This document shows positions 26,991 to 54,863 of a stretch of 64,000 nucleotides of DNA, one piece after another. Origin of the DNA: a virus. Each line of letters opens with the position of its first letter. Within the stretch, counting starts at the first letter, position 1. A program made the position numbers and the translations under genes. The notes beneath the pieces were generated by a model. That model was not told the origin of the DNA. It ran no database searches and saw only the letters and a list, made by a program, of their open reading frames with translations. The stretch lies in IMG/VR virus record IMGVR_UViG_3300023184_004234, positions 3,910 to 67,909 of that record; one strand, 5' to 3'.

Positions 26991-29900
26991 ATGGCCGTTG
27001 ATATAAAAGTTGCACCAGAAGAAAAATTAGAATTAGTACAAACATTAATTGTAGATAATTCGGCAAATTCAGAATACTTTAATATAAGTGAACTTCCTGA
27101 TTCTTTTTCTGGAGGTAAAAACGCATTCTTAATAGCAGGTTCTGATTTATTACAATCTAACTCTGAAATAAAAATACAAATTAGAGATGCGGCGGGTAAT
27201 ATTGTTTATCATGAATTTTCAGATGGTAGCCCAAACGAATACTATGAAGGCAATTCTAAAGTAGTAGCAGTATATGTTTATCCAACTGAAACTGCATTTG
27301 GACCAGCAACAATTACTGTTTTAGGTGAACTTAATATTAAAAATGTAAATGTTCCAATTGATTGGCAAAATAAATATAATGTAAAGTGGACGGGCAGAGT
27401 TAATATTAATCCAGCATTAGCCAACACAACAAGGGTAAGATTTAAAAAAAGACCTAATGTTAAAATTACTGAAATATTAGAACCACTATATACGGTTAAT
27501 ACGATTACAACAACATATACTGGTTCTGCTAGGGCAATTCCTGTATCTCCAAATGCAGGTACTAATTATCAAAATTGGCTAAATTCTGGTCATACCATTG
27601 ATGATTTATATTATGCATTTCAAACCTCACCAAATACTCAAATAATATCTTCTAGTTTAGTTGGGTCAACTATTACAACGGATATTCCAGGATATTCACC
27701 AATAATTAAAACTGCTCCAAATACAACATATGCGTATGTATATCCACCTTTATTAGATAGTAATGGTAATATAACAGGAAGTCCTGAAAATACATTTATT
27801 TCATATTCAATTGTAGACACAACTGCTACTAGTAAAGTTGCATCATTGGTTACTCAATCTTTTGCTGCAATTACTATAAACCAATTAGAAACATTTGCAG
27901 GGGATGTAGCAAGAGTAAAAGTATTTAGAACATCTACAGGAGATATTTCTGATTATGAATTAATACAAGATATTAGAGTTGAATCAAAAAATCTTTTAAC
28001 TACATATGCATTAAGTAGTAGTGTAGTTGGAAATGCGGGATTATTTACACAAGATTCTTTAAGTAAGGTTTGGAATACTGGTTCATTATCTGCAAATTTA
28101 ACATCAACATATGTAAACGATGGTGTAAAATTAGCAGGTCATGGTTATCTTACATATACTTCATCATTAAATCTGTTAAGTTCAAATACATATGAATTAC
28201 AATTAAATTCATTTTTTACAGGTTCAACTTCAACAAATTTAGTAGCATATATTAGTGGTACACAAAATGGAGCAATTCCAATTACAACATTTAGTGGTTC
28301 AATTCCAACTAAAAATTTTGGAACAACTACAACTGCATTTAAAATTGCAAACGATGAACCATCTGCAAGTTTATATTTATCACAATCATCTGGAACAAAT
28401 CAATGGCACATTGGTAATATATCATTAAACCTTTCACAAGATACGGCATTTTCACCAAACGAAATTAGTTTTATTACATCAATGCCGACTGTATTAGGTA
28501 ATGAAACATTTAATTTTAAGTTTGAATTATACGATATAAACAATAATTATGTACCTATTGCATTAACATCAAGTGTACTATTCAATGGTGGTAATAATAA
28601 CATTGGGGGAACTTTATTAATAGTTAGTGGTTCTACCTCAGCATCAAACGCATCCATATTAGCATTATCACAATCAGTTAGTGGTACAATATCAGCAACA
28701 TCACAAAGTGTAAGTAGCAGTATTGCAGCAACAAGTTCATCTTTAAGTAGTAGTATTTCTCAATCAACTTTTACGGCATCTATATATACCAGTGCATCAG
28801 TATCTACACTAAGTGGCTCGGTGAGCACTTCTATAAATTTAGTAAGTGGTTCATTAAGTAGTTCTATTAATGTAGTTAGTGGGAGTGTAGTTAATTTAAG
28901 TTCATCAGTAAGTACATCATTATCAACGTTATCATCATCATTAAGTACCTCATTATCTACCATTAGTAGTTCAGTATCTAATTCATCTTTTACAGTTTAT
29001 TCGGCATCAGCGTATTTAGAGAAATTTATTTTTACAGATGAAAATGGTAAATTAAATAAAACACCAACAACATCATCCGTAGTAAATGGCTTATACTTAG
29101 GTTCAACTTATTTAGGATATTATAGTGGAAGCAGTTGGAAAACATATATGGATAATCAGGGAGATTTTTATCTTACGGGTTCAAACAATAATTTTTTAGC
29201 TTGGAATAGTTCATTGGGAACATTACAAGTTCAAGGTGTAATTAATATTCAAGGTGGAAACGCTGCAACAACAAGTAGTGTAAGTTCTTCAATAAATTCA
29301 GCAACATCATCATTATCTCAATCATTAGCACCAAATATATTTACATCTACAACGGGTTTAATAAATAGACCACCTGTTGTATTGGTAGGTGGTACATCTG
29401 GATTATATTTAGGTTCATCTTATTTAGGATACTATGATGGTTCTGATTGGAAAACCTATATGGCTAATAATGGTAACTTTTATTTAAGTGGTCCTGGAAC
29501 TAATTCATTATCATGGATAAATGGGGCGTTAACCATAAATGGTGTAATAAATATAACAGGAGGAAATGCCGCAACACAAACATATGCGAGTGGTACGGCA
29601 TTTACACAAGCTACAACTGCACAATCAAATGCAGTATCAACCGCAGCCAGTGATGCAACAACAAAAGCAAATGCAGCACGAACCGCCGCAGAATTATTTG
29701 CGAGTGGGATTGGAACAAACGCCGTAGCATCGGGTTCTGCTGCAGCAACGGCGGCACAAACTGCGGCAATAAATCAAGCAAAAGCAGATGCAAGTGCATC
29801 CGTTACTTTATTAGCAAATGGAAATTGGACAGCAGGCAGTGGAACATTCATAACATCTAATTCTATTTCATCTCCTGTAATTGCAGGTAATGCCGGATAT

Positions 29901-31601
29901 ATCAGTTCTCTTTTTAAAGTTGGACAGGGTGGTATAACATTAGATGGTGGTAATAAAAAAATATTTATAGGTACTGGTACGTTTGGAAATGCAAACACAG
30001 GATTTTATGCAGATAATGATGGTAATTTTTCGTTAGGAAACCAACTTACATTTACAGGTGGAAATTTAGCAATTGCTGGTGCAGCTAGTATTGGTGGAAC
30101 TACGGCAACAACCATAGCAAACGGAGCTGCAGCGGGCGCAGCTGCACTACAACCAGGGGCAAACATTAGTTCACTAAATAACAACTCCGGATACCAAGAT
30201 GCATCGAGTGTAAATAGTGCAGCAAAAACAGCAGGTTCTGTTGGTGGTTGGACAATTAATTCAACAAATTTAACATCTAATAATAATAGAACAATTTTAT
30301 ATAATACCGGATATATTGAATTAAAAGATACAGCTGGGCAAAATAAAATAACAATAGATTCTAGTGCAACATTACCTAGTCCAACCGCCGGCAGTGATAG
30401 TGGAAACATTGTAGTACCGGCACAATCTGCACAAACAGTATATTATCAAAATGGTACAATATCAGGTGGTACTTCACCATTAGTTGGGCCTGATGGAAAT
30501 GGGTTTTATGGAATCGGTTGGTCTCAACAAGTTGTATTTACTCCTACAATATCAGGATACTATGAATTTACAACTTGGTTTCCAAAAAATGATGGTATGG
30601 GAGCAAGTGGAACAAGTGGTACTGCTTTAATGGGATTAAGAGCATACATTTATGATATGGCAGGTAATTCATTAATAAATGATGATGGTAGAGAATATAT
30701 AGAAGGGCCGGTGGAAGGTGCGGGTGCAAATACAACCCAATCTGGATATGCAACAGGTACATATGGTAATCAATATAATAGAGATGGAACCGGTGCTTAT
30801 TTTTCTAACCAATATCTTACTGCAGGAGTTGCAGTTAGATTTTTAATACAATGGGTAATTTTTAATATACGTTATTCGGATAATTTAACAATTAAAGCAT
30901 ATTGGCCGGCAACAAATGTACAATTTATTTCAAATGTACCTAAAACTAATATTAACCAACAAGGATTTCAAGTTATACAAGATACAAATAGATATTTAAC
31001 AATTAAACCATCTGGTTGGTATATGTATAACGACCCTGCTATTTATGGTGGTTCACCACCACCATATATAAATGACCAGGGAGTTACTGAGGTTACCGGT
31101 ATTATGGGTGGTACTATGGTTGTATTGAATGCAACGGATAAAGGGGATTGGCATAGTGGTAAACAAAAACAATATATCCGAAGTGCACAATATTCATTTG
31201 CAAATAGAGCAGCGGGTGGCAATTTTCTTACTTCATTTTTCTTTGGAGGATATGGTAGGTCGTTTAATATAACAAGAGCATATGGTTGGTTTACTCCAAA
31301 TTCAAATACTGGATTTACTACATATGATAGTCAATGGTGGCCTTACGCATATAACATTGAAAGTATAACTAGAATTAGTTATGGTAAATTTCAAGTAACA
31401 TTTGCAGAATCAGTAATGGATTCATATGGTGCATACTCAGGTGGTGGTATATATAGTGTATTTATAGGAAGAAGAGATGGGGATTACGCATCAGAATTCA
31501 CCACAGCTGCTATAAGTAACATATATCACACAGGATTTATTATGGATTTAGGTAATGAGACACCAGCAAATAGATTTGTTTCAATATTAGTAATAGCTTA
31601 A
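26991..31601 (+). CDS. Long tail fibre / receptor-binding protein, Ser/Thr/Gly/Ala-rich
   Basis: 1536 aa with a Ser-rich periodic stalk, a duplicated beta-rich module, an Ala-rich coiled coil, GSVGGWTINST fibre motif and aromatic-rich C-terminus. Followed by a chaperone-like gene. Confidence 0.75.
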   Translation: MAVDIKVAPEEKLELVQTLIVDNSANSEYFNISELPDSFSGGKNAFLIAGSDLLQSNSEIKIQIRDAAGNIVYHEFSDGSPNEYYEGNSKVVAVYVYPTETAFGPATITVLGELNIKNVNVPIDWQNKYNVKWTGRVNINPALANTTRVRFKKRPNVKITEILEPLYTVNTITTTYTGSARAIPVSPNAGTNYQNWLNSGHTIDDLYYAFQTSPNTQIISSSLVGSTITTDIPGYSPIIKTAPNTTYAYVYPPLLDSNGNITGSPENTFISYSIVDTTATSKVASLVTQSFAAITINQLETFAGDVARVKVFRTSTGDISDYELIQDIRVESKNLLTTYALSSSVVGNAGLFTQDSLSKVWNTGSLSANLTSTYVNDGVKLAGHGYLTYTSSLNLLSSNTYELQLNSFFTGSTSTNLVAYISGTQNGAIPITTFSGSIPTKNFGTTTTAFKIANDEPSASLYLSQSSGTNQWHIGNISLNLSQDTAFSPNEISFITSMPTVLGNETFNFKFELYDINNNYVPIALTSSVLFNGGNNNIGGTLLIVSGSTSASNASILALSQSVSGTISATSQSVSSSIAATSSSLSSSISQSTFTASIYTSASVSTLSGSVSTSINLVSGSLSSSINVVSGSVVNLSSSVSTSLSTLSSSLSTSLSTISSSVSNSSFTVYSASAYLEKFIFTDENGKLNKTPTTSSVVNGLYLGSTYLGYYSGSSWKTYMDNQGDFYLTGSNNNFLAWNSSLGTLQVQGVINIQGGNAATTSSVSSSINSATSSLSQSLAPNIFTSTTGLINRPPVVLVGGTSGLYLGSSYLGYYDGSDWKTYMANNGNFYLSGPGTNSLSWINGALTINGVINITGGNAATQTYASGTAFTQATTAQSNAVSTAASDATTKANAARTAAELFASGIGTNAVASGSAAATAAQTAAINQAKADASASVTLLANGNWTAGSGTFITSNSISSPVIAGNAGYISSLFKVGQGGITLDGGNKKIFIGTGTFGNANTGFYADNDGNFSLGNQLTFTGGNLAIAGAASIGGTTATTIANGAAAGAAALQPGANISSLNNNSGYQDASSVNSAAKTAGSVGGWTINSTNLTSNNNRTILYNTGYIELKDTAGQNKITIDSSATLPSPTAGSDSGNIVVPAQSAQTVYYQNGTISGGTSPLVGPDGNGFYGIGWSQQVVFTPTISGYYEFTTWFPKNDGMGASGTSGTALMGLRAYIYDMAGNSLINDDGREYIEGPVEGAGANTTQSGYATGTYGNQYNRDGTGAYFSNQYLTAGVAVRFLIQWVIFNIRYSDNLTIKAYWPATNVQFISNVPKTNINQQGFQVIQDTNRYLTIKPSGWYMYNDPAIYGGSPPPYINDQGVTEVTGIMGGTMVVLNATDKGDWHSGKQKQYIRSAQYSFANRAAGGNFLTSFFFGGYGRSFNITRAYGWFTPNSNTGFTTYDSQWWPYAYNIESITRISYGKFQVTFAESVMDSYGAYSGGGIYSVFIGRRDGDYASEFTTAAISNIYHTGFIMDLGNETPANRFVSILVIA
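28626..28988 (+). repeat. Serine-rich ~11-residue periodic region inside the tail fibre
   Basis: SVSTLSGSVST / SINLVSGSLSS / SINVVSGSVVN / SLSTLSSSLST / SLSTISSSVSN. Confidence 0.75.
29088..29576 (+). repeat. Two-copy internal module repeat (period 312 nt) in the tail fibre
   Basis: GLYLGSTYLGYYSGSSWKTYMDNQGDFYLTG...VINIQGGNAAT (29088-29270) versus GLYLGSSYLGYYDGSDWKTYMANNGNFYLSG...VINITGGNAAT (29400-29576). Confidence 0.85.
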
Positions 31602-31612
31602 AATAATAACAA

Positions 31613-31900
31613 ATGAAAACGTATATAATAATATTTCCAAACACACATCCAGATACAATATCAGAATTATGTACAAGTCTTATAACTATTAAATCTGATA
31701 ATAAATTAGATGCTATGCCCGATGCAATAGAAGTAACACCTGCCGGTTACCCATTTTTAATAATAGAAAGTACAGAATATGATAGTATGTTTCATGATGC
31801 ATACGCAGTAGATTTTTCTAATCCAGATGGGTATGGTACTAATCAAAAAATTTTAAAATCACTTAAAGCTTCCGGTTTTACTGACTGGGTTACAAATTAA
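31613..31900 (+). CDS. Hypothetical protein (tail fibre-associated)
   Basis: 95-aa ORF between the fibre and the chaperone, with P.G.PF.II and D.S.PDG.G motifs. Confidence 0.55.
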   Translation: MKTYIIIFPNTHPDTISELCTSLITIKSDNKLDAMPDAIEVTPAGYPFLIIESTEYDSMFHDAYAVDFSNPDGYGTNQKILKSLKASGFTDWVTN

Positions 31901-31905
31901 ATATT

Positions 31906-32166
31906 ATGTTAAATATAGATGTAAATAGAGCATTAGATGTACATAAAAAACAAATAAGAATAAAAAGAGAAATTATTTTAAAAGATTTAGATGTACAATT
32001 TATGAGAGCATTAGAAGCTGGAAATTCTACATTAGCAGCAGAAATAGGTGCAAAAAAACAAACACTAAGAGATGCGACTAATTTTGATTCGGGTTCAATT
32101 ACTAATTTAAGTGATGTGAAAGCATTATGGGATGTAGAATTATTAGGTGAAACACCATATCAATAA
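31906..32166 (+). CDS. Tail fibre assembly chaperone-like protein
   Basis: IRIKRE..LKDLDVQFMRALE...KKQTLRDAT...W pattern of Tfa-like chaperones, directly after the fibre. Confidence 0.65.
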   Translation: MLNIDVNRALDVHKKQIRIKREIILKDLDVQFMRALEAGNSTLAAEIGAKKQTLRDATNFDSGSITNLSDVKALWDVELLGETPYQ

Positions 32167-32173
32167 ATAAGTT

Positions 32174-33187
32174 ATGTTTGATTTATTAGTTACGACAGGC
32201 GCAGGTAATCTACCTATGGGTGGTAGTGATATATGGGTAAATAATTTCTTAGAGAATGTTGTACCATATTTAAAATATCCAATTGTATTATTAATTGATG
32301 GTAGAAAACCTAATGGATTTGACCCGACATCTATCCCTTGTCAATTTGTATTTTCAAAAGAAACACCACTATTAGTACCACCACTATTAAGAAATTGTAG
32401 AAGAATACATTTTTTACACAACAACTATTATCGTAGAGATGAATTGTGGGAGTTTAAATATAAATTTCATACAATATTTTGTCACGCCTACATCAAAGAA
32501 ATTATAAATACAAATATAGAATTAGGATTAGATAGAGTTTACTTACCTACTACAATGGATTTACAATGGGAGCAAGATGTAATGAATCGATGTAAACATA
32601 TAGTTTGGATTGGTTGTAATGATGGATTAGTTCAAAAAGATTTTAAAAAGAAATGTATTCAGATACCAAATTACTATGAGTTTAACCACAATATAGAATA
32701 TAGATGGAATACCGATAAGATAGGATATGCAGCTCGTAGTGAAACAAGAAAATGTTTTCACTTCTTAGATAAACATAAAGGATATGCTATTACCGATTGG
32801 ATGGGATATGAAAATTTAAAAGAAGGATTAAACTTAGATTTGAAAAAAGTAAGATTCTACCCATATAATTTGGAAAACCACAGAAATTTCTTTAACTTAG
32901 ACTTTACGATATTTCACGGATGTTATGTAAATGAACCATTTGGGTATTCTATATTTAACGCAATTGATTATGGTAAACTTCCAATACTAAACAAATATTG
33001 GTTACCTAAAATAGATTACAAATATAGAGCAAATACAAAAGAGGAATTTAATAAAATGTATGAAATAATGTGTAATGATTTTGAATTAGAACGACAATAT
33101 AATTTTTTTAATTTAAAAGAAGCATTACAACAATATAGTAGTAAAGAGGAATGGATATATGAAATCACAAATATTTTAAATAAATGA
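32174..33187 (+). CDS. Glycosyltransferase, GT-B fold (GT4-like)
   Basis: N-terminal MGGSDIW, and C-terminal YAARSETRK and EPFGYSIFNAIDYGKLPI (GT4 EX7E-like region). Confidence 0.7.
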   Translation: MFDLLVTTGAGNLPMGGSDIWVNNFLENVVPYLKYPIVLLIDGRKPNGFDPTSIPCQFVFSKETPLLVPPLLRNCRRIHFLHNNYYRRDELWEFKYKFHTIFCHAYIKEIINTNIELGLDRVYLPTTMDLQWEQDVMNRCKHIVWIGCNDGLVQKDFKKKCIQIPNYYEFNHNIEYRWNTDKIGYAARSETRKCFHFLDKHKGYAITDWMGYENLKEGLNLDLKKVRFYPYNLENHRNFFNLDFTIFHGCYVNEPFGYSIFNAIDYGKLPILNKYWLPKIDYKYRANTKEEFNKMYEIMCNDFELERQYNFFNLKEALQQYSSKEEWIYEITNILNK

Positions 33188-33939
33188 TAACCAATAAAGA
33201 TTATATCAAAAACAATATTTCTAATAATCAAGAAATAGATGAACATGGAGACCAGGTTTTAATTAACGTTCCTTATAGGTGGAGTCATGGTGCAACCGAT
33301 GAACATTTAGGAGATGGATTAATCATTTATTCCCTAATTCAATATATGCGAGCAAAAGTATGTGTATGTTTAGGAAGTGGTGGCGGTTTTATACCTAGAA
33401 TTATGACGCAGGCTCGTTACGATTTGTGGAAACAAAATATATTTGAAGGTGATAGTGATTATAATCATGGTGATATTGGATGTACATATGTTGTAGATGC
33501 GACAAATGGTATAGGTGGTAATGTAAATTGGTTAAAAGAAGAATCTTTTTTTAGAAGTACATTTTGGCCTAGAATTATAAACGATACAACTGCAAACGCA
33601 TTTCATAACTTTTTTGTATTAAATGATATTAAAATTGATTATTTACATATTGATGCGGGCCATAGTTATGAAAACGTAAAAGAAGATTTTGAATTATACT
33701 CGCAATTAATGAGTGAAACGGGTATTATATCAATTCATGATACTGACCCTAATTATGCAGATAAATATATAGTGACAAATGAAGTTAAAGATAGGGGTGA
33801 TTTTGATGATTGGAACGGACCTATACAATTAGCAAAAGAAATAGATACAAATAAGTGGCAAGTTTTTGATTTGTTTAATTTCGGTATATTAAAAAATAAG
33901 CCGGCCTCTACTGGACTAACATTAATAAGAAAAAAATGA
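33184..33939 (+). CDS. Class I SAM-dependent methyltransferase (Methyltransf_24-like)
   Basis: VCLGSGGG, IDYLHIDAGHSYENVKEDF and GIISIHDT. Confidence 0.85.
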   Translation: MITNKDYIKNNISNNQEIDEHGDQVLINVPYRWSHGATDEHLGDGLIIYSLIQYMRAKVCVCLGSGGGFIPRIMTQARYDLWKQNIFEGDSDYNHGDIGCTYVVDATNGIGGNVNWLKEESFFRSTFWPRIINDTTANAFHNFFVLNDIKIDYLHIDAGHSYENVKEDFELYSQLMSETGIISIHDTDPNYADKYIVTNEVKDRGDFDDWNGPIQLAKEIDTNKWQVFDLFNFGILKNKPASTGLTLIRKK

Positions 33940-34790
33940 AACCAAAATTAGTAACAGTAACAGGTCATAGAACAAATACATTAAGACATCAACTTAACCA
34001 TTACAAAGATATGGTTAGTGAAGTATTTTTAATTGTATATGAAAATGCAGATTCGCCTAAAAATATTAAAGATGAAATTGCAGATATAGCTAAAGATTTT
34101 GGTATAGAAATACATGCAGTTAAAACACATAGACCATTTGATTGGGAAGAAGTAACTCGTTTGTATAATAAAACAAAAATGTTATTTCCTAACGATTGGT
34201 GGATTATAGCAGATGATGATGAATTTCAGGTATATTCAAAATTAATTACCGATATTACAAAAATATGTGATGAAAGTGGATATGAGTTTGTAACAGGAGG
34301 ATTTGTAGATAGAATAGGTAGGGGTGGCACGTTTACTGAAATAAATGATGATACAAAAATATGGGAAGCATTTCCAATGGCAGGTTTCTTTCGTTATCCT
34401 TTAAGTGGGGCATGCCCAAATAAAATAACAATGTGTAAAGGGCATATTGAAGTGACACCGGGTCAACATTATGCAAAAATAGACGGACAAACAACTTGGA
34501 AATGGCAAGGTTGGAATCATCCATTAAGATTTCCTACAACACAAAACTTTACACAAGTACATCATTTTAAATGGGATAGTACAGTATTGGATAGATTACA
34601 GGATGTAGCAAAGATAGGACAAGTATATTCATACTCAAATGAATATCAAACAATGTACGATGCAATAAAATCAAATAATTTTAAAATTGATATTTATGAT
34701 GAGAGGTTTTTATTCGAAGAAGTAAAAAATCCATCTTATTTTTCTTATAAGAATTGGAACAAACTATCTAAGATAATACTCTCTATTTAA
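33936..34790 (+). CDS. Glycosyltransferase, GT-A fold (GT2-like)
   Basis: LRHQLNHY, WWIIADDDEF (DxD) and VHHFKW motifs. Confidence 0.75.
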   Translation: MKPKLVTVTGHRTNTLRHQLNHYKDMVSEVFLIVYENADSPKNIKDEIADIAKDFGIEIHAVKTHRPFDWEEVTRLYNKTKMLFPNDWWIIADDDEFQVYSKLITDITKICDESGYEFVTGGFVDRIGRGGTFTEINDDTKIWEAFPMAGFFRYPLSGACPNKITMCKGHIEVTPGQHYAKIDGQTTWKWQGWNHPLRFPTTQNFTQVHHFKWDSTVLDRLQDVAKIGQVYSYSNEYQTMYDAIKSNNFKIDIYDERFLFEEVKNPSYFSYKNWNKLSKIILSI

Positions 34791-36307: not shown

Positions 36308-36717
36308 TAAAAGAACTATTACAAAATGAATCGTTTGTAAAGCAATTAGAATTAATTGCGGAAGAATTGGATATAATGAAAGAAACAAAAGGAGATTTTT
36401 CATTTTTTCTACCAAAGCTAATCTTAAATATTGAGGGATTGATGAAAAAATATCACCCATTGGGCTCTAATGTATTTGATTATATGGTAGAATATGATTC
36501 AGTATCGGTACAAAACGAAGAACTAAAAAGAAAATATATTGAAGATGTTGATGCAAACAACAAAAGATTAAGAGATGTAGAATATAGAGTGTGGAAAGAA
36601 GGTTCGGAAAATTTAGCATTTGAAAAAGTAAAACAAAATTTGGGAATATTAGAAAACCCATCAGTAGAAATTGAAAACGAAAAAAACATACAATTATGGC
36701 AGACAAAAAAGAATTAA
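36304..36717 (+). CDS. Hypothetical protein
   Basis: ATG at 36304 overlaps the previous TGA. Helical and charged. Confidence 0.55.
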   Translation: MIKELLQNESFVKQLELIAEELDIMKETKGDFSFFLPKLILNIEGLMKKYHPLGSNVFDYMVEYDSVSVQNEELKRKYIEDVDANNKRLRDVEYRVWKEGSENLAFEKVKQNLGILENPSVEIENEKNIQLWQTKKN

Positions 36718-45039: not shown

Positions 45040-45671
45040 TGACATATTTAGAAAAATATCCTATTGTAGCAGATGCTAGATTTACAAAGGATGAATTAAT
45101 TGCGTACGAAAGAATGATTGCTGACCATTGGGAGGCGGGTAAAATAAAAGGACCGGTGCATCTTAGTGGTGGTAATGAAGAACAACTTATTGAAATTGGA
45201 AAACGAATTAAAGATACAGATTGGGTATTCTCAACCTGGCGCTCACATTATCACGCACTAATAAAAGGTGTGTGTCCTGTTTGGCTAGAAGAAGAAATTT
45301 TAGCAGGTAGAAGTATTACAATTGTTAGTGAAGAACAAAAATTCTATGCAAGTGCAATTGTTGGTGCAATTATACCAATAGCAACGGGTGTAGCAATGGC
45401 AAATAAGAGAGATGGTAAAGATGATAAAGTATTTTGTTTCATTGGAGATATGGCATTTGAGACCGGTGGATTTTATGAAATGCACAAATACGCAGTTAGA
45501 TATGATTTACCAATTGTATTTGTAGTAGAAGATAATGGTGTATCAACAAACACACCAACCGAAGCAACGTGGAATGGTGAAAAAAGAGAAGTACCATCGG
45601 AAAAAGTTATTTGGTATTCATATGAAAAGCAATGGCCGCATTATGGTACAGGTAAATGGGTAATATTTTAA
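45039..45671 (+). CDS. TPP-dependent dehydrogenase E1 alpha-like subunit (short)
   Basis: GPVHLSGGNE, STWRSHYHAL and the TPP motif GDMAFETG...FVVEDN. Confidence 0.88.
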   Translation: MTYLEKYPIVADARFTKDELIAYERMIADHWEAGKIKGPVHLSGGNEEQLIEIGKRIKDTDWVFSTWRSHYHALIKGVCPVWLEEEILAGRSITIVSEEQKFYASAIVGAIIPIATGVAMANKRDGKDDKVFCFIGDMAFETGGFYEMHKYAVRYDLPIVFVVEDNGVSTNTPTEATWNGEKREVPSEKVIWYSYEKQWPHYGTGKWVIF

Positions 45672-47128: not shown

Positions 47129-48369
47129 TAAATTTATACATAGAAAAATGGCAAAATGGATATCCAATACCAAATGGAGCCGATTCTATTCCCGATGTTG
47201 ATTATACTGATTTTGGTTCACTTATACATTCGGTAAAAAAATCAAATTTAGAAACAAACTTTAATGAAATATTTAATCACGCATCACATAGAGAAAATAA
47301 TCTAATTGAATGTTTTAATAGTAATGAATTATCAGTTATTTCTACTGATAAAATTCTACCAAATGCTAGAAATTTTTATGTTATTTTTGCAAAAACACAT
47401 TTTGAAGATTTACATGAATATTTTGATAAATTTGATATACAATTAAATAAAGGATTTGATTTATTATTTATAAACTTTCATGAATCGGGTACATATAATA
47501 GATTCTATACTTGGGTAAACAATAATCCTAATAAAAATAAAATATACACAATTTCACCGGCATATAATCTAGATGAATTTGCAAATTGTAATAATATATT
47601 TTTTCCATATCATTTATACGATATTGATAAAAATTTTAAAATGGAAGGAAACTATCCGGTATGTACCGTTGATGATTATATCAATACACCAAAAGAAAAA
47701 ACATTTTTATCATTTAATAGAAATGCAAAAAGATTTCATAGATTATATTTTTATGAAATGTGTAAAGAACTTAATTTAATAGATTCAAATTATGTTTCAT
47801 TTTTAGAATTTCAAGACAAAGATATTGTAAGAACACATAATATATTAGATATCTATCCAAATTTAAAAACATATAAACAAAATTATTTAAATTCGGAACA
47901 TACACAAATTGCACTAGATATTAGTTCTGATATGCCATATGGTGAGTATGATGAAAAAAGTCACAATTGGAATAATAACAAAGAATATTACACTAAATCT
48001 AATTTTAGTATTGTAACTGAAACTATGTTTTTTGAAAATGAAATAATGTTAACAGAAAAAATATTAAGACCTATTGCAAATGCACATCCGTTTATACTAA
48101 TAGGACCTAAGCATGGCTATAAAATATTAAAAGAAGCGGGATATGAAATATGTAATTTAATAGATTACGAATATATAGATAATATCAGTAACCCATTTTC
48201 TAGATTAGAGGCAATAATTACGGAATGTAAAAAGCTATTTTATAATTTGGAAAGTAAAAATAAAAGTAGTATATTTATAGATATACAAAAACATAATCAG
48301 TATAAATTATTAAATACAAAAAAAGAAGATGTATTTTATGAATTGTATTGTAAACTATATAAAAAATGA
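47122..48369 (+). CDS. Uncharacterised GT-B/GT10-like putative glycosyltransferase
   Basis: FLSFNR...HR, FSIVTET, LTEKILRPI...HPFILIG and LKEAGY. ATG at 47122. Confidence 0.55.
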   Translation: MLINLYIEKWQNGYPIPNGADSIPDVDYTDFGSLIHSVKKSNLETNFNEIFNHASHRENNLIECFNSNELSVISTDKILPNARNFYVIFAKTHFEDLHEYFDKFDIQLNKGFDLLFINFHESGTYNRFYTWVNNNPNKNKIYTISPAYNLDEFANCNNIFFPYHLYDIDKNFKMEGNYPVCTVDDYINTPKEKTFLSFNRNAKRFHRLYFYEMCKELNLIDSNYVSFLEFQDKDIVRTHNILDIYPNLKTYKQNYLNSEHTQIALDISSDMPYGEYDEKSHNWNNNKEYYTKSNFSIVTETMFFENEIMLTEKILRPIANAHPFILIGPKHGYKILKEAGYEICNLIDYEYIDNISNPFSRLEAIITECKKLFYNLESKNKSSIFIDIQKHNQYKLLNTKKEDVFYELYCKLYKK

Positions 48370-49313
48370 AAACAGTTTTAATAACAGGTTGCAGTGGATT
48401 GGTTGGTATACATTTAGTAAATCAATGTTTAGAAAAAGGATATAATGTAATTGGAGTAGATATTAAAAAATCTATTCATTTACCCATAGATAATCCTAAT
48501 TTTATATTCTCATTTAGAAATTTGGCACAAGATGGTGAAGTAGAATTATTGTTTAAACAATACGAACCTGATGTGGTATTCAATTCATTCGGTATTAAAG
48601 GTTCACCATTGAAGGCAAAAAATGAACCTGTGGATTTCCTTTACCCATCTTTTAAAATTAATACTGAGATTATAAATCAATGTGCAAAGAATAATATCTG
48701 GTTAATCTTTGTTAGTTCAGTTGGAGTATATGCACCAGCAGAAACATTTGTAGAAGATAGTGTATGGAAAACATTACCATCGGAAGCAGATTGGTTTCCA
48801 AGTTGGAGTAAGAGAATGGGTGAAATTTTATTAGAAGCATATAAAGTACAATACGCATACAAAAATTGGGCAATTATAAGACCAGCAAACATCTTCGGTG
48901 AGTATGATAATTTTGATGGTAATGGGACGGTAATTGCAACTCAATGTAAAAAAGTATTTGAAGCAAATGAAATAGTTAGTGCTTGGGGTGATGGAACACC
49001 GATTAGAGATTTTGTTTATGCGGGCGATGTAGCAGATGCAATTATTAAATTATATGAAACTAAAAATCATATAATTGTAAACTTTGGAGCAGGTGAAGAA
49101 ATTACTATCAAATCAATGATTGAAGATTTAATTGAAATAAGTGGAAAGAAATTGGAAATTGTATGGGATATTACAAAACCAAATGGTGATATGAGAAGAC
49201 AAATGGATATCCAACAACAAACAAAAATAAATTTACTACCAAAATTAGGATTTAAAGAAGCACTTAATATAACCTACAACTTTTATAAAAACAATAGAGA
49301 TGGAAATAATTAA
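48366..49313 (+). CDS. NDP-sugar epimerase/reductase, GDP-L-fucose synthase-like
   Basis: ITGCSGLVG, SSVGVY, RPANIFG and WGDGTPIRDFVY. The usual YxxxK Tyr is not evident (PSWSK). Confidence 0.82.
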   Translation: MKTVLITGCSGLVGIHLVNQCLEKGYNVIGVDIKKSIHLPIDNPNFIFSFRNLAQDGEVELLFKQYEPDVVFNSFGIKGSPLKAKNEPVDFLYPSFKINTEIINQCAKNNIWLIFVSSVGVYAPAETFVEDSVWKTLPSEADWFPSWSKRMGEILLEAYKVQYAYKNWAIIRPANIFGEYDNFDGNGTVIATQCKKVFEANEIVSAWGDGTPIRDFVYAGDVADAIIKLYETKNHIIVNFGAGEEITIKSMIEDLIEISGKKLEIVWDITKPNGDMRRQMDIQQQTKINLLPKLGFKEALNITYNFYKNNRDGNN

Positions 49314-50004
49314 TACTGGATATTCTACTGGTAATATATTAGATATATTAACACCTGAGCAAAAAATAGATTTAGAAAAAAATATTCAGTATGTAAAAGA
49401 TTCTGCAGTTGATAAGACGGAATTGAAATATAGATTTGATTTTTCTGGAGGTCCACCATATACCGATAATATTGTTATGTGGGATGGTATAAAAGAAAGA
49501 GAAGAATATGTTGAAAAGAATGGTTATCATATATTTCAAAAATTTTGGGAATATGATTTAAAAGATGAACGAATTACAAAATTCTTTGACACAATCTCAG
49601 TAGCTATTGGCAATTCACTATATCCAAAATATAATATTAATTTAAATGATTTGGATAGCAGAGGAAGATATATGTTATACGAAAATGGTGATTTTATTAA
49701 CGCACATGAAGATGGATTTGATGCGAGAAGATTATGTGTAGTGTTATTATATTTAAACGATGATTGGAAAGAAGGTGATGGTGGGGAATTAGTTATTAAA
49801 AATAATGGAAAAGAAACAATTGTTTTACCAAAATTAGGCAACTATGCAGTTTTAGATTTTACAAAAAATAACGTAACACATCAAGTTTTAAAAGTGAATA
49901 ATAATTTTAAAAGATTTAGTTATATTCATTTTTTAAATTTTAAAGATATAGATACCGAAACATTTAAATTATTCAAAGAAGATAAAATAGAATTCAAAAA
50001 TTAA
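49300..50004 (+). CDS. 2OG-Fe(II) oxygenase (prolyl-4-hydroxylase-like fold)
   Basis: HED (HxD), LLYLNDDW...GGEL, distal H (THQV) and RFS. Confidence 0.85.
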   Translation: MEIINTGYSTGNILDILTPEQKIDLEKNIQYVKDSAVDKTELKYRFDFSGGPPYTDNIVMWDGIKEREEYVEKNGYHIFQKFWEYDLKDERITKFFDTISVAIGNSLYPKYNINLNDLDSRGRYMLYENGDFINAHEDGFDARRLCVVLLYLNDDWKEGDGGELVIKNNGKETIVLPKLGNYAVLDFTKNNVTHQVLKVNNNFKRFSYIHFLNFKDIDTETFKLFKEDKIEFKN

Positions 50005-50006: not shown

Positions 50007-50984
50007 ATGATAAATAAAGATTCAAAAATCCTGATAACAGGTGGTTCTGGCTTAGTAGGTCAAAATTTAACAAACCGATTACACAAAGAAGGTTACACAA
50101 ACATTAGAGTTAATTTACACAAAAGAGGAGTACGAACACCAATCGAAGGTGTAGAGTATGTTCACTTTGATTTAAAAACATATGAAGGATGTTTAGATGC
50201 AACTAAGGGTGTTGATGTAGTATACCACGCCGCAGCAAGTACATCAAATGCAGTAGATACAGTAGTTGACCCGTTAGCACATGTTACACCAAATGTAGCA
50301 ATGAATAATTTCTTAATTGATGCCAGTTGGAGAAATAACGTATCACATTACATCTTTTTATCATCTAATACAGTTTATCCACCAAAAGGAGATAAGCCGG
50401 TAGTAGAAACCGATTTCTTATTTGATGAACCATATCCTGTTTATTTTCCTGTGGGTTGGATGAAACGATATGCAGAAGTACAATGTGAATTATATGCAAA
50501 ATATTTACCGGTTAAAATGAAATGTACGATTATTAGACCTGCAAATTTATTTGGACCGCATGATAAGTATGATTTTAATAAATGTCATGTTACTCCTGCA
50601 ACAATCAGAAAAGTAGCAGACCAAATGAATCCAATTCCAGTATGGGGTGATGGTAGTGAATTAAGAGATTTATTATACATTGAAGATTTTGTAGAAGCGT
50701 TACAAATAGTAATGGAAAAAGAAACCGAAGATTATCAAGTTTATAATATCGGTTCTAATAGAGTATATTCAGTATTAGAAGTATTAGAAGCAATGAAACG
50801 AATTGCAAACTTTGATGCACCAACTGAATTTATTAAAGGTAAACCATCAATGATTCCAACTCGTAAGATTGATTCATTTAAGATTTTTGATAAATTAGGA
50901 TGGCAAGCAACTACATCATTAGAAGATGGATTAGCTAATGCATACGAATGGTATTTAGAACATAAAGATGAATTCAAAGATTAA
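50007..50984 (+). CDS. NDP-sugar epimerase/reductase, GDP-L-fucose synthase-like
   Basis: ITGGSGLVG, SSNTVYP, RPANLFGPHD, HVTPATIRK and WGDGSELRDLLY. Confidence 0.85.
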   Translation: MINKDSKILITGGSGLVGQNLTNRLHKEGYTNIRVNLHKRGVRTPIEGVEYVHFDLKTYEGCLDATKGVDVVYHAAASTSNAVDTVVDPLAHVTPNVAMNNFLIDASWRNNVSHYIFLSSNTVYPPKGDKPVVETDFLFDEPYPVYFPVGWMKRYAEVQCELYAKYLPVKMKCTIIRPANLFGPHDKYDFNKCHVTPATIRKVADQMNPIPVWGDGSELRDLLYIEDFVEALQIVMEKETEDYQVYNIGSNRVYSVLEVLEAMKRIANFDAPTEFIKGKPSMIPTRKIDSFKIFDKLGWQATTSLEDGLANAYEWYLEHKDEFKD

Positions 50985-52174
50985 TGAAAAGAATTCTATT
51001 TGCAGGAGATAGTTTTACATGGGGAGAAGGATTACAATTCTACTCCGGTCAGAAAGATGTTTTTTTTCCAAAAACACATAAGTTTGACCCAACATTAATA
51101 TCAAATTTGCAAATGGAATTTATTATTAATAATAGATTTCCAACATTAGTTGGTAACCATTTTAATAAAGAAACTATATTAAGAGCCGATAATGGTGGTT
51201 CTAATACTTGGTCTACCAAATTTATAAAAGAGATAAAAAATACAAATCAAATTTCTCATATAATATATCAATTAACTGATTTGTATAGAGAAGAATTTGA
51301 ATTTACACATAATGGTAAATTAATATCAATATATGTTCAAGATTTTGCACAAACTAAACATTTAGATAAAAAAACTGATTTTAAATTGAATACTAAATAT
51401 AGTGACCATAAAAATGATTATGACTCATTTTTTGAATATTATGCTGCTAATTTTAAATCAATTGAAGAATTTGAAATATTTTTTATAAAACAATCGTTAC
51501 TTAAAATAAAAAATGAATTATTAAATCATATTGCAAATGGAATAATTGTTTATTTTTTAAATTGGAGAACAAATTATACACCTATACTTTTAAAAGATAA
51601 ATTTTTTTCAAAACGATTAATAAAATTTAATTATTTAAATAAAACTTATTCTGATTTAGAAACACTATGTAACGAAAAAAGGCCCGAATTAACAAATCAA
51701 TATGTATTTAGAACATTTAAAGTATTGGTAAATGATTCACATCCGTCATTATTAGGACATAGAATAATTGCAGAAAATATAATTAAAAAAATTGGAGTAA
51801 TAGATGAAATTGATGATGATGTTAAATTAAGTAATGAATTAATAAAAGAAGAAGAACTTAGATTACAAAATGAAATATTAATATTAAAATCTAAATTAGA
51901 TAAAGTTAGAGGTGATATAATAGAACAAACAGAAATAGAAGAACAAAAATTAATTAATTATTCAATTCAAATAGATCCAGAAATAGTAGCACTAAAATCG
52001 GAAAAATTAAAAGAAGAATTAAAGCAAAAGTTAAATGATGAATTAGAAGATGAACTAACTGAAATAAGAAAAAGATTGGATTCAGTTAGATACGATTTAA
52101 CTGAACAACTTGCAATTGAAGAATGTAGATTAAAAGATATTATAAAAAGAAACAATACAAAAAAACTTATATGA
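50984..52174 (+). CDS. SGNH/GDSL hydrolase-like protein with C-terminal coiled coil
   Basis: FAGDSFTWG (block I), GGSN and DSHPSLLGH (block V). Acidic coiled-coil tail with an internal duplication. Confidence 0.7.
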   Translation: MKRILFAGDSFTWGEGLQFYSGQKDVFFPKTHKFDPTLISNLQMEFIINNRFPTLVGNHFNKETILRADNGGSNTWSTKFIKEIKNTNQISHIIYQLTDLYREEFEFTHNGKLISIYVQDFAQTKHLDKKTDFKLNTKYSDHKNDYDSFFEYYAANFKSIEEFEIFFIKQSLLKIKNELLNHIANGIIVYFLNWRTNYTPILLKDKFFSKRLIKFNYLNKTYSDLETLCNEKRPELTNQYVFRTFKVLVNDSHPSLLGHRIIAENIIKKIGVIDEIDDDVKLSNELIKEEELRLQNEILILKSKLDKVRGDIIEQTEIEEQKLINYSIQIDPEIVALKSEKLKEELKQKLNDELEDELTEIRKRLDSVRYDLTEQLAIEECRLKDIIKRNNTKKLI

Positions 52175-52716
52175 GTTCACCAGAATATACACCATACAAA
52201 GATGCTTTAACGGAAGCAATGAAAAATTTAGCAGAATTAGAAGATTCTGTTTTTATTGGTCAACAAATTGTTTATCAAGGCAATCCTATGAGTACAACGT
52301 TAGGATTTGTGCCAAAAGATAAAATGATTGAAGTTCCTGTAATGGAAGAATCTCAAATGGGAATGAGTTTAGGAATGGCAATGGCAGGTAAAAGAGTTAT
52401 TACGTTCTATCCTCGTTGGGATTTTATTATTTGTGCGGCAAATCAATTAATAAATCACGTCGATAAAATTGGTATAATGAGTGAAGGTAAATGGAAACCA
52501 AACTTAATTATTAGATTAGGTAAAGGTAGTGATAAACCAATTGATCCAGGTCATCAACATAGAGGAAATTATTTTGAAGAGTTTAAATCTTTATGTAAAA
52601 ATATAGAATTCCACGATTTAAAAACACCTACTGATATTGAATTGGCCTACAAATATGCAACCAAAGAAGGTGGTATTCATATATTAGTAGAATATCCAGA
52701 ATTATATTATGCTTAA
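52171..52716 (+). CDS. TPP-dependent E1 beta-like subunit (pyrimidine-binding domain only)
   Basis: VFIGQ, EVPVMEESQMGMSLGMA, AANQLINH and GHQH. 181 aa, lacking the transketolase C-terminal domain. Confidence 0.85.
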   Translation: MSSPEYTPYKDALTEAMKNLAELEDSVFIGQQIVYQGNPMSTTLGFVPKDKMIEVPVMEESQMGMSLGMAMAGKRVITFYPRWDFIICAANQLINHVDKIGIMSEGKWKPNLIIRLGKGSDKPIDPGHQHRGNYFEEFKSLCKNIEFHDLKTPTDIELAYKYATKEGGIHILVEYPELYYA

Positions 52717-54073
52717 TTTGGTATTTGATAAATGGAGCGTAGAAGGTTACATTCCAAATGGTATGGATGAGGCATTAGTAAATTACATAATGTTTAATTA
52801 TCAAAAAGATGAAGATACCTATAATCATTTGCCAAACGCTTTAGAAAAAACATTTGGAAAAGATTTTAATATTTGGAATGATTTATTTGGAATAATATTA
52901 AGTAAAAATTTAATAAAATGTATACCATACACATCAAATAAAAAAGATTGGGTATATGTAATTGAACCATGGGGACATTTATCTTATTCTTGTAATTTAT
53001 TTGTAGATGAAAGAGGTGGTGGATATAGAAATTTTTTCAAAAATATTCCTGAAAAAATAAAAAAAGATATCAATGATGACAATGGAAAACTTGTAATAAA
53101 TTATTCACATGAAGGATGGGTAAACGATTGGCTTTTAAAAAATTTATATTTAGGAATAAAAAATAATGGAATATCAACAAAAAATTCTATTTTAATATTA
53201 AATGATTTTAATTTAGAAAAAAAAGTTAATAAGTTTATTTTAGAAAATGGAATAGATAAAGAAACATTTCCTAAAATAATAAATTATAGTTATTATATAC
53301 CATTTTCTTCTTTTTATTTTTATAACAAATATAAAGAATTTGATACTGCTAAATATTTTAAAAACAAAACTCATAAATTTTTATTTTTAAATAGAAGATT
53401 AGAAGTACATAAATTAGAAGTATTATTACAACTATATGAAAATATAAAAAATGAAAGTATTATATCATATGATAAAACATTAATATCCGATGACGTATTA
53501 TTTGAATTTACAACAAATTTTGAATTAAAAAATAAATTTGATTCCATTCCCAATAAATCAATTGCAGATATAGAAAACATAAAAGATGTTAATGGGTATA
53601 AAGATGAAAACTCAGAACTATATGAAAAATCATTATTTAGTATTGTAACTGAAACTAATTTTTATAATGATAATGATTTTATAAGTGAAAAGATTTTTAA
53701 ACCATTATGGCATATGCAACCATTTATTGTAATAGGTAGACCATATATGTTAAAATATTTAAAAGAACTAGGGTTTAAAACATTTGATTGGTTAATAGAT
53801 GAAACATACGATACAATAGAAGATAATAATACTAGAATGAAATTAATTATAACTGAAATTGAAAAATTAAACAAAATGGATTTCAACTTATTAAAAGAAA
53901 AAATTCATAATAGTTATGATATATTAGAACATAATAGAAATGTTATATTAAACATTGGGAATAATATATCTGAAATTGAATATACATTATTATCTAATTT
54001 GAATAAATTTAATGAGATTAGGTATTTAGACCTAATAAAAAATATAAACTATGAAAAAGGCAATTTGGTGTAG
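52709..54073 (+). CDS. Uncharacterised GT-B/GT10-like putative glycosyltransferase
   Basis: FLFLNRR...HK, FSIVTET, FISEKIFKPL...PFIVIG, LKELGFKTF and IDETYD. Confidence 0.55.
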   Translation: MLNLVFDKWSVEGYIPNGMDEALVNYIMFNYQKDEDTYNHLPNALEKTFGKDFNIWNDLFGIILSKNLIKCIPYTSNKKDWVYVIEPWGHLSYSCNLFVDERGGGYRNFFKNIPEKIKKDINDDNGKLVINYSHEGWVNDWLLKNLYLGIKNNGISTKNSILILNDFNLEKKVNKFILENGIDKETFPKIINYSYYIPFSSFYFYNKYKEFDTAKYFKNKTHKFLFLNRRLEVHKLEVLLQLYENIKNESIISYDKTLISDDVLFEFTTNFELKNKFDSIPNKSIADIENIKDVNGYKDENSELYEKSLFSIVTETNFYNDNDFISEKIFKPLWHMQPFIVIGRPYMLKYLKELGFKTFDWLIDETYDTIEDNNTRMKLIITEIEKLNKMDFNLLKEKIHNSYDILEHNRNVILNIGNNISEIEYTLLSNLNKFNEIRYLDLIKNINYEKGNLV

Positions 54074-54863
54074 AGGATGCTCATTTACATTTGGAGAAGG
54101 ATTACAATATTTTTCAGAATTACCTTCGGTAAATATACCGGATGAACAATATTGGGATTCAAAATATTTAACAAATGCACAATATCAATTTATTAGATAT
54201 AATAGATATTCAAAATTATTAGCAGATAAATTAAATACAATTGATATAAATGGTTCATTAAATGGTGGTACAAATGCAACCATATATAACGCATTAAAAA
54301 GATTATTATCACCAAAATATTCAAATAATAATTCTCCATATTTGGATGAACACTATATTGAGTTAAATGAAATTGGTTTAATAGTAATTCAATTTACAGA
54401 TTTATTTAGAGAACATATCAAAATAGATGACATATTATACGAACCAGCTAGTAAATATAAAGATAAATTTGATTGGATAGAAACAGTTTCTAAAACAATT
54501 ACGTTTGAAACTTTTGTAGAAAAAGTAGCGGAAAAAACGATAAAAGAATTTGAAATATTATTAAAAGAAATACAAGAAAAAAATCCAGATGTAATAATTA
54601 GAGTATTTAATTGGTTTCCAGAAACGGATAATGCTATTAGAAACAATGAATATTTTAAAGATAAACTTTTAAAATTTGAAATAGATGGAAAAACGTATAA
54701 TAATTTTAAAGACATGATATATGGAAAGCATGGGTTGACAATTGAAGAAACTTTTTATCCAAAATGTGGACACGACCAACATTTTAATTTAATTGGTCAA
54801 AAATTAATAACAGATACTATTTATGCTAGTATAAAAGATGAATGGGAAGAAAAATATAAATAA
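54051..54863 (+). CDS. SGNH-like hydrolase/acyltransferase, paralog of 50984..52174
   Basis: GCSFTFGEGLQ, GGTN, IQFTDLFRE and DQHFNLIGQ. Confidence 0.65.
   Translation: MKKAIWCRGCSFTFGEGLQYFSELPSVNIPDEQYWDSKYLTNAQYQFIRYNRYSKLLADKLNTIDINGSLNGGTNATIYNALKRLLSPKYSNNNSPYLDEHYIELNEIGLIVIQFTDLFREHIKIDDILYEPASKYKDKFDWIETVSKTITFETFVEKVAEKTIKEFEILLKEIQEKNPDVIIRVFNWFPETDNAIRNNEYFKDKLLKFEIDGKTYNNFKDMIYGKHGLTIEETFYPKCGHDQHFNLIGQKLITDTIYASIKDEWEEKYK

Follow-up and report, generated by a model that had tools for sequence, protein, structure and literature searches.

Aquatic T4-like myophages, such as pelagimyophages and cyanomyophages, carry a variable block beside their fibre genes, in which glycosyltransferases, sugar-nucleotide enzymes, and cassettes of radical S-adenosylmethionine (SAM) enzymes are encoded (PMC7029224; PMC5332604). 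T4-like marine genomes contain up to 12 radical SAM genes (PMC5332604). The present study describes a 22.7-kb island of this kind in an uncultured water phage from IMG/VR. The analysed stretch, hereafter the window, comprises 64,000 nucleotides (positions 3,910 to 67,909 of record IMGVR_UViG_3300023184_004234). The island spans 32174-54863 and follows the gene for a large, Ser-rich, fibre-like protein (26991-31601). Its enzyme families and the absence of membrane proteins bear out the initial annotation of this DNA, which had described the block as a soluble, cytoplasmic glycan-building pathway. We tentatively propose that the glycan is placed on a protein of the virion, a reading to which we give a little less than an even chance.

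In outline, this kind of island is known from host recognition clusters, which are rich in glycosyltransferases and radical SAM enzymes (PMC7029224). Similar to these clusters, the island lies behind a fibre gene, is mosaic at the level of single genes, and combines glycosyltransferases with radical SAM enzymes (PMC7029224). The window island is a radical-SAM-poor, sugar-nucleotide-rich form with three copies of GT7-LamG, a GT7 glycosyltransferase with a LamG domain. The relevant portions of PMC7029224 and PMC5332604 name GT8 as the main family and contain no gene-level description of a cassette, whereas the core in the window consists of a GT-A fold glycosyltransferase, a small protein, GT7-LamG, and an N-terminal-twitch (N_Twi) radical SAM enzyme. 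The literature, the supplements of these two papers not being covered, provided no description of the cassette or of GT7-LamG in phages.

Capsid and tail-tube subunits of mycobacteriophages carry glycans at their C-termini (PMC12619734, citing Freeman et al. 2023). The likeness to the window lies in cytoplasmic glycosyltransferases of a phage that are proposed to decorate its own structural proteins. The systems of Freeman et al. 2023 reportedly comprise much smaller gene sets and other glycosyltransferase families in Gram-positive-type hosts, with glycans that were demonstrated experimentally, whereas the window island is known from its genes alone. A fold search of BFVD with the GT-A model returned generic viral GT-A proteins only, including GT2/GT92-like proteins of Klosneuvirus and other giant viruses at template modelling (TM) scores of 0.5-0.6. 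Giant viruses (the chlorovirus capsid and the Mimivirus fibrils) use virus-encoded, host-independent, cytoplasmic sugar-nucleotide enzymes, glycosyltransferases, and a methyltransferase for the virion surface. These machineries belong to eukaryotic viruses, and only generic folds, with no sequence-level homology, are common to them and the window. Moreover, sugar activation, which many giant viruses provide for themselves, is absent from the window record and four relatives (NTP_transferase in none of the five).

The island consists of 22 back-to-back + strand open reading frames (ORFs) of at least 80 aa, most of which overlap or abut. The sole gap of more than 40 nt, at 36718-36916, contains a conserved 73-aa ORF. 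The boundaries and dense packing initially reported are correct, with this ORF added to the 22. The genes are as follows, in which SDR denotes a short-chain dehydrogenase/reductase, TPP thiamine pyrophosphate, and 2OG 2-oxoglutarate.

32174-33187, + strand: GT-B fold, GT4-like glycosyltransferase, 337 aa (predicted fold)
33184-33939, + strand: class I SAM methyltransferase, Methyltransf_24 (Pfam 40.2 bits; cut-off 26.3)
33936-34790, + strand: GT-A fold glycosyltransferase with an invariant DDDE motif (predicted fold)
34826-36307, + strand: GT7-LamG copy 1 (Pfam GT7N 89.6, GT7C 65.5, LamG_3 71.7 bits)
36286-36717, + strand: 143-aa protein of unknown function (no family in Pfam and NCBIfam searches; present in 9 of 94 related loci)
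36696-36917, + strand: conserved small protein, 73 aa, with a helical-looking core of ~40 residues
36917-38329, + strand: GT7-LamG copy 2 (Pfam; HDVD and GWGFED motifs)
38329-39777, + strand: GT7-LamG copy 3 (Pfam; HDID and DWGMED motifs)
39777-41174, + strand: N_Twi_rSAM radical SAM enzyme, copy 1 (NF033640 326.5 bits; CxxxCxxC at residue 137)
41174-41977, + strand: 267-aa protein with a weak LamG-like match (Pfam LamG_3 21.3 bits, below the cut-off)
41977-42945, + strand: SDR sugar epimerase/dehydratase, GalE-like (Pfam Epimerase 122.3 bits)
42947-44503, + strand: N_Twi_rSAM radical SAM enzyme, copy 2 (NF033640 313.2 bits; CxxxCxxC at residue 146)
44503-45039, + strand: RmlC-like dTDP-4-dehydrorhamnose 3,5-epimerase (Pfam 115.8 bits)
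45039-45671, + strand: TPP-binding (PP) half of a split E1/transketolase-like enzyme, 210 aa (E1_dh 69.6, TPP_enzyme_C 37.1 bits)
45656-48369, + strand: two virus-only paralogs (490 and 419 aa), possibly GT10-like (paralogy alignment)
48366-49313, + strand: SDR, GDP-L-fucose-synthase-like (Pfam Epimerase 122.6 bits; NF047922 127.2 bits, below the cut-off)
49300-50004, + strand: 2OG-Fe(II) oxygenase of the prolyl-hydroxylase type (PF13640 46.9, PF13661 40.3 bits; not Tet_JBP)
50007-50984, + strand: SDR, GDP-L-fucose-synthase-like (Pfam Epimerase 149.2 bits; NF047922 145.2 bits)
50984-52174, + strand: SGNH-like esterase/acyltransferase candidate, paralog 1 (motifs by eye)
52171-52716, + strand: pyrimidine-binding (Pyr) half of the split TPP enzyme, 181 aa (Transket_pyr 30.9 bits)
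52709-54073, + strand: third virus-only paralog, 454 aa, of the possibly GT10-like trio
54051-54863, + strand: SGNH-like candidate, paralog 2

The three GT7 enzymes (34826, 36917, and 38329) all exceeded the Pfam cut-offs, with 89.6, 78.6, and 69.9 bits for GT7N (cut-off 27) and 65.5, 68.3, and 68.4 bits for GT7C (cut-off 23). DxD is the metal-binding and W-G-x-E-D the catalytic motif of GT7, and both are retained in all three copies (HDVD, HDVD, and HDID; GWGIED, GWGFED, and DWGMED). In the 34826 protein, residues 2-172 correspond to residues 49-218 of Drosophila beta4GalT7 (PDB 3lw6, E 1.1e-35), and beta4GalT1 chains score similarly. The catalytic part and its motifs are, therefore, common to animal B4GalT7/B4GalT1 and the phage enzymes; however, the latter have a whole LamG domain added and no membrane anchor. 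LamG_3 occupies approximately residues 170-350 and is followed by a conserved C-terminal segment ending in G-L/M-N-x-x-x-Y/F, which HMMER aligned to beta4GalT7 residues 240-257 without significance of its own. Since LamG lies between the catalytic core and this segment, we read it as an insertion that appears to sit inside the GT7 catalytic domain, on the acceptor side. We infer that LamG probably holds the acceptor. Copy 3 is 84-91% identical across close relatives.

The protein at 32174 had no family at the sequence level in Pfam, NCBIfam, and PDB profile searches. Its AlphaFold2 model (predicted local distance difference test score, pLDDT, 92.8) gave Foldseek TM scores of 0.59-0.67 against 7qsg, tll1591, WbnH, PimA, and HepE in the PDB. 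The model of the GT-A protein at 33936 (pLDDT 94.2) had SunS (Z 11.6) and GalS1 (Z 10.5) as its best VIA neighbours. SunS is a peptide glycosyltransferase and leads the next match by only ~1 Z; the GT-A protein is a candidate for the enzyme that adds the first sugar. Its family comprises 3249 metagenome clusters at 90% identity (E<=0.001), the best 120 of which are unnamed or 'hypothetical' and lack a Pfam domain. Since the GT-A clusters are unnamed, one biochemical result would annotate thousands of genes.

The initial annotation counted up to eight glycosyltransferases. Five of these (GT4-like, GT-A, and three GT7) are confirmed, while the three GT10-like proteins are leads. The latter (45656, 47110, and 52709) are true paralogs according to their family alignment. 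None of 12 family members matched a Pfam glycosyltransferase family at E<=5, and the profile of the trio found no PDB sequence and no NCBIfam match. An Atlas search with 52709 reached Glyco_transf_10 clusters at 0.80-0.81 only, which is a lead only, and the best 30 Atlas clusters for the trio were 100% viral. PDB sequence searches with three family alignments yielded nothing usable.

The enzymes of donor synthesis had been correctly recognised: the three SDRs, RmlC, and the split TPP enzyme are matched by Pfam profiles. The best NCBIfam match of the SDR at 41977 is GalE (97.8 bits, under its cut-off), the RmlC-like protein scores 111 bits against TIGR01221 (cut-off 155.75, not reached), and the Pyr-domain protein at 52171 is E1-beta-like by NCBIfam. 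The protein at 41174 has only 30-40% identity in most otherwise close relatives. Regarding the tailoring enzymes, profiles support the methyltransferase, the 2OG oxygenase, and both radical SAM enzymes, whereas the two SGNH assignments have no profile match. These two proteins (50984 and 54051) are paralogs with 26% identity (E 2e-17). SGNH hydrolases have four conserved blocks (GDS, G, GxND, and DxxH); GDS/GCS, GG(S/T)N, and D(S/Q)H were seen by eye in the pairwise alignment, and searches of Pfam, NCBIfam, PHROG, and the PDB gave no profile match. The radical SAM enzymes pass the NF033640 cut-off of 170 bits (326.5 and 313.2) and have CxxxCxxC plus four conserved N-terminal Cys residues. Against PDB sequences, they gave only three weak matches, SkfB among them (E 0.27).

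The copy number of the radical SAM gene, two in the window, is the most variable feature of these islands. In two related loci (L054 11946-17175 and L055 11403-13974), the N_Twi radical SAM gene is present in four to six tandem copies behind the glycosyltransferase core.

Whole-record family searches covered the window record and four relatives, one of which (G001) is a 237-kb, 100% complete genome with nearly the whole island. Bac_transf and Glycos_transf_4 were each found in none of the five records (controls were positive in 9 and 12 of 14 genomes, respectively). The flippase family Polysacc_synt was likewise found in none of the five; Wzy and ABC families were not searched. Set against a Wzx/Wzy or ABC O-antigen or capsule locus, the island revealed no priming transferase, flippase, or membrane protein within this scope. 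A hydrophobicity scan of the island proteins detected no transmembrane segment or signal-peptide-like N-terminus, with no hydrophobic 19-mer above 1.84. Among 1031 ORFs of related islands, a strongly hydrophobic segment is present in only four, each of them a short antisense ORF. The reported lack of export machinery, lipid-carrier transferases, and signal peptides was confirmed in these searches. However, the pathway is not self-contained, as had been suggested: NTP_transferase, the sugar-1-phosphate nucleotidyltransferase family, was found in none of the five records, and nucleoside diphosphate sugars (NDP-sugars) from the host are, therefore, required.

This dependence on the host also suits another acceptor, namely, the host envelope. 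The soluble enzymes would act on lipid-linked O-antigen, capsule, or core intermediates at the cytoplasmic face and would rely on the priming enzyme, flippase, and ligase of the host, for example, to block superinfection or keep progeny off debris. Envelope modification is the published reading of glycosyltransferase- and radical-SAM-rich host recognition clusters in pelagimyophages (PMC7029224), and the GT4-like and GT-A folds are typical of lipopolysaccharide (LPS) or capsule pathways. However, the 1031 ORFs of related islands include no phage-encoded membrane component. The distribution of the island among relatives also bears on this issue.

In IMG/VR, the 34826 protein identified 14 loci and the 39777 radical SAM enzyme 213 relatives, 80 of which were retained (94 loci in total). 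Homologs of the radical SAM enzyme were present in 92 of these loci, GT7-LamG in 67-68, GT-A in 58, the methyltransferase in 55, and the GT4-like enzyme in 37, while homologs of the window baseplate proteins were present in none. These 94 viral loci and 10 full-length loci from metagenome-assembled genomes (MAGs) were annotated, and the resulting 104 loci were merged where they shared 40-mers, which left 49 groups. The full core was present in 24 groups, and in 22 of the 24 its order was methyltransferase, GT-A, GT7-LamG(s), and radical SAM. We defined fibre-like ORFs as those of at least 400 aa with a combined Ser and Thr fraction (S+T) of at least 0.20, or homologs of 26991. Of the 12 groups with at least 5 kb of upstream DNA, 11 had such an ORF no more than 9 kb upstream; as the background rate, S+T is at least 0.20 in 25 of the 241 ORFs that are 400 aa or longer. 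The linkage persists in lineages whose fibres lack similarity to 26991. A second lineage has upstream genes that unmistakably encode fibres; these contain short Ser/Ala/Tyr repeats and have no similarity to 26991.

A lack of synteny between the island and fibre in relatives had been named beforehand as a possible refutation of virion glycosylation. The link is present in the close relatives as well as in the 11 groups, and the gene order in close relatives is Mre11-Rad50, 2OG oxygenase, fibre, and then the island. So large a pathway had also been regarded as unusual; in contrast, IMG/VR loci and metagenome clusters show that the cassette is widespread in uncultured phages. One near-identical relative (L009) has a backbone gene with 98% identity, RmlC with 93%, and the TPP half with 97%, whereas GT-A is only 55%, GT7 copy 1 60%, 41174 38%, and 45656 34% identical. 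This gene-level mosaic is the pattern of serotype-like loci, with a product exposed to selection.

Cultured phages provided little for comparison. GT7-LamG was found in none of 50,697 phage records, and a megablast search of the island DNA against the same number of records gave no match. Among cultured phages, a homolog of the radical SAM enzyme was found only in RsoM2USA, a jumbo phage of Ralstonia (37% identity); the neighbours of this gene are all annotated 'hypothetical', and one SDR is the only gene that they have in common with the window island. In 185,579 species genomes, the GT7 profile found 99 relatives, 80 of which were kept. Ten of the 80 were full-length. In six of these ten, the same cassette is present on MAG contigs that were assigned to disparate taxa and for which a phage origin is the simplest explanation. 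The remaining 70 matches were partial and, in nearly all cases, confined to the GT7 catalytic part (the first ~140-205 residues). The signature enzymes are thus phage families and not recent loans from hosts. Recent capture of a host LPS locus was rejected because GC is uniform (0.23-0.34 across the window, with no shift at the island) and the key families are virus-only.

The case for a virion acceptor is based on the same-order cassette across hosts, signature enzymes of phage families, and their travel with fibre genes. Since the cassette retains its order in phages of apparently very different hosts, the acceptor should be encoded by the phage. The contigs that carry it were binned with Pelagibacterales, Flavobacteriaceae, Gammaproteobacteria, and a Firmicutes genus, the envelope acceptors of which would differ, although the host is only weakly indicated by a bin label. 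Moreover, the key enzymes belong to virus-only families and are not copies of host genes. We consider host-envelope remodelling unlikely, while keeping it in serious view.

Virion glycosylation directs attention to the genes immediately before the island.

26991-31601, + strand: fibre-like protein, 1536 aa (by size, composition, and position)
31613-32166, + strand: two small ORFs of 95 and 86 aa behind the fibre-like gene

The fibre-like protein has S+T of 0.24 overall and a Ser-rich stretch at ~aa 526-675, in which S+T reaches 0.52-0.58 per 50 aa. This stretch of ~150 aa has hydrophobic residues at every third to fourth position in a heptad-like manner. The protein contains a duplicated module of ~75 aa. 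Its homologs in relatives have a conserved N-terminus and a divergent C-terminus, which is the pattern of receptor-binding proteins. No Pfam, PHROG, or PDB family was found, and the matches were at chance level only (DUF3806 and antibody light chains); the N-terminus weakly matches Microcystis phage Mel-JY01 (25% identity). The protein is likely a fibre. The second small ORF matches phrog_20196 (78 bits, function unknown) and, weakly, a tail-fibre-assembly PHROG (E 0.0095), and both small ORFs are present in 6 of the 94 related loci, each time behind the fibre; they are possible fibre-assembly factors. The initial labels of fibre and chaperone are thus based on size, composition, position, and the weak PHROG match at E 0.0095, and were not confirmed by a family match.

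The initial annotation also compared the fibre with serine-rich-repeat (SRR) adhesins. SRR adhesin systems have paired GT4-type GtfA/GtfB, SecA2/SecY2 export, and long SRR dipeptide repeats. The comparison fails because the stalk reads as a heptad-like fibre repeat and not as an SRR-adhesin repeat. Furthermore, the island contains one GT4-like enzyme only and no membrane or Sec component (GtfB and SecA2 were not searched directly).

In four close relatives (L006, L008, L010, and L013), the gene directly 5' of the fibre gene encodes a 2OG-Fe(II) oxygenase with 38-40% identity to the 49300 protein. In the window, the same spot directly before 26991 is occupied by the ORFs 25307-26464 and 26466-26975.

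While the enzyme families, their solubility, the lack of carrier and export genes, the gene order, and the fibre linkage are shown by the sequences, the order of reactions and, above all, the acceptor are inferred, as follows. Host nucleotide sugars would be remodelled by RmlC, the three SDRs, the split TPP enzyme, and the two twitch-type radical SAM enzymes, and the split TPP enzyme could attach a two-carbon branch. The chain would be begun by the GT-A or GT4-like enzyme and extended by the three GT7-LamG enzymes, with the three virus-only paralogs perhaps acting as additional transferases. The product may then be trimmed or decorated with methyl, acyl, and carbamoyl groups by the methyltransferase, the 2OG oxygenase, the SGNH-like pair, and a distant carbamoyltransferase, and progeny virions would exit the cell with a variable sugar coat. 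Among the proteins of the particle, the upstream Ser-rich fibre would most likely be the first-choice acceptor.

We also speculate that large aquatic phages run a cytoplasmic, mucin- or proteoglycan-like protein glycosylation line, in which swapped transferases give rise to virion 'glyco-serotypes'. The SunS-like GT-A enzyme would start the chain on the Ser-rich shaft or on the 73-aa protein as a primer, and the beta4GalT enzymes would extend it, with the spliced-in LamG lectin domain reading the growing chain. The radical SAM, TPP, methyl, acyl, and carbamoyl enzymes would edit the sugars, and swaps of single transferases between near-identical phages may tune adsorption or hide the particle. 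We regard this wider scheme as possible rather than probable.

Several points weigh against a virion acceptor. The Pfam, PHROG, and PDB searches provided no homology support for the identity of 26991 as a fibre, the hydrophobic spacing of the stalk is that of a coiled-coil fibre shaft, and the Ser-rich region need not be a glycosylation site. Fibre-adjacent genes form the hyperplastic region of T4-like phages, and linkage may, thus, reflect insertion tolerance (PMC7029224). The authors of that study favour modification of the host O-chain (PMC7029224). Soluble glycosyltransferases of O-antigen pathways likewise lack transmembrane segments and act on lipid-linked acceptors, and a host-envelope target is, therefore, compatible with the lack of such segments in the island. 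Timing signals were also not detected in scans for the T4 late-promoter word TATAAATA (24 found, 27.5 expected) and for sigma-70-like promoters (132 found, shuffle mean 150).

The small protein of the core suggests a further acceptor. Its 73-aa ORF (36696-36917) was missed by the initial annotation and by the 80-aa ORF cut-off, and was found by searching all small + strand ORFs against the related loci. Related viral loci contain 41 distinct copies, 31 of which are located directly upstream of a 36917-type GT7-LamG gene and 20 directly after a GT-A gene. E10, R12, E18, and Y46 are invariant. All other conserved members of the core are enzymes, and the small protein may serve as a subunit, specifier, or primer. 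Two tandem diverged copies of the small ORF are present in L033 (4615-5093) and also in L029, L032, and L039.

The glycan may be built on the 73-aa protein or as a free glycoconjugate, in a system of the glycocin type, that is, of ribosomally synthesised and post-translationally modified peptides (RiPPs), or of the glycogenin type. The position of the ORF as the sole conserved non-enzyme beside GT-A (20/41) and GT7-LamG (31/41) is consistent with this possibility, as are SunS, a glycocin S-glycosyltransferase, as the nearest structural neighbour of GT-A and SkfB among the three weak PDB matches of the radical SAM enzymes (E 0.27). Twitch/SPASM radical SAM enzymes often mature peptides, which also counts in its favour. 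However, none of the invariant residues of the 73-aa protein is Ser, Thr, Cys, or Asn, its core is conserved throughout with no leader/core pattern, and the numerous NDP-sugar enzymes indicate a large glycan rather than a peptide product. We consider a small carrier or a free product improbable. A reading as a RiPP system only was rejected as the main explanation because of the many NDP-sugar enzymes.

DNA hypermodification had been named initially as the alternative to virion glycosylation. The transferases would attach sugars to hydroxymethylated bases in the phage genome, in the manner of T4 and of the clusters described by Pyle et al. These clusters, identified by metavirome mining and sometimes located near structural genes, resemble the island in combining phage GT-A/GT-B enzymes with epimerases (bioRxiv 10.1101/2023.12.21.572611). 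Such transferases with their partner epimerases glycosylate 5-hydroxymethylcytosine (bioRxiv 10.1101/2023.12.21.572611). The GT-B model also reaches TM scores of 0.57-0.59 to the T4 alpha- and beta-glucosyltransferases, below its GT4 matches, and the island contains a methyltransferase and a 2OG oxygenase. However, the clusters are defined by a C5-methyltransferase with 5mYOX, or by a thymidylate-synthase homolog (bioRxiv 10.1101/2023.12.21.572611), and these neighbours are missing. None of the five records contains a C5 DNA methylase, and Tet_JBP was found in none of four, the latter a weak negative since the search control was silent. The thymidylate synthase family was present in two of four records (G002, 320.9 bits; G004, 300.3 bits) and absent from the complete, island-bearing G001. 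In addition, the methyltransferase belongs to Methyltransf_24, and the oxygenase is of the prolyl-hydroxylase type and not of the TET/JBP type. Modification of DNA is, in our view, very improbable.

If the product is on the virion, glycosylation would be a common, so far unmeasured control of host range and stability in abundant aquatic phages, based on an uncharacterised enzyme design, namely, GT7 with LamG together with N-terminal-twitch radical SAM enzymes. If the envelope is the target, the island would represent a new soluble route by which lytic phages rewrite cell surfaces.

The source record is 67,909 bp long, with a completeness of 32% (CheckV), and the window is most of the record. 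Every long ORF of the window is on the + strand. The features outside the island and the fibre region are as follows.

930-2645, + strand: NodU/CmcH-type carbamoyltransferase (Pfam Carbam_trans_N 224.6, Carbam_trans_C 206.1 bits)
3101-20482: baseplate/tail module, with a gp25-like protein at 6268 and a CHAP domain at 4405
20722-25335: T7-type endonuclease I, DnaG-type primase, and a fused Mre11-Rad50-like protein
25307-26464 and 26466-26975: two ORFs without assigned function, directly before the fibre-like gene
55016-59365, + strand: 1449-aa NMNAT-like protein, directly after the island
60675: T4-type large terminase

The carbamoyltransferase is located ~30 kb 5' of the island, ahead of the baseplate genes. 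Homologs are present in 20 of the 94 related loci, within the island in L101 and adjoining it in L069 and L100. The enzyme may belong to the island pathway.

The closest matches to the terminase are from Flavobacterium phage immuto and Microcystis phage Mel-JY01 (54.9% identity), and no cultured phage is more closely related. In immuto, the 52 features surrounding the terminase include no annotated glycan genes. A phage of the Bacteroidota-type myophage kind is plausible.

In the baseplate module, the 454-aa protein at 4405-5769 (+ strand) has a C-terminal CHAP peptidoglycan-hydrolase domain and is probably the cell-wall-piercing enzyme of the tail. The protein that follows the island (55016-59365) has an N-terminal cytidylyltransferase-like (NMNAT-type) domain and DUF5661, while most of its length has no family. 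Mre11-type and Rad50-type proteins are normally encoded by separate genes (gp47/gp46 in T4). At 22189-25335 (+ strand), one 1048-aa protein fuses an Mre11-type metallophosphoesterase with a Rad50/SMC-type ATPase.

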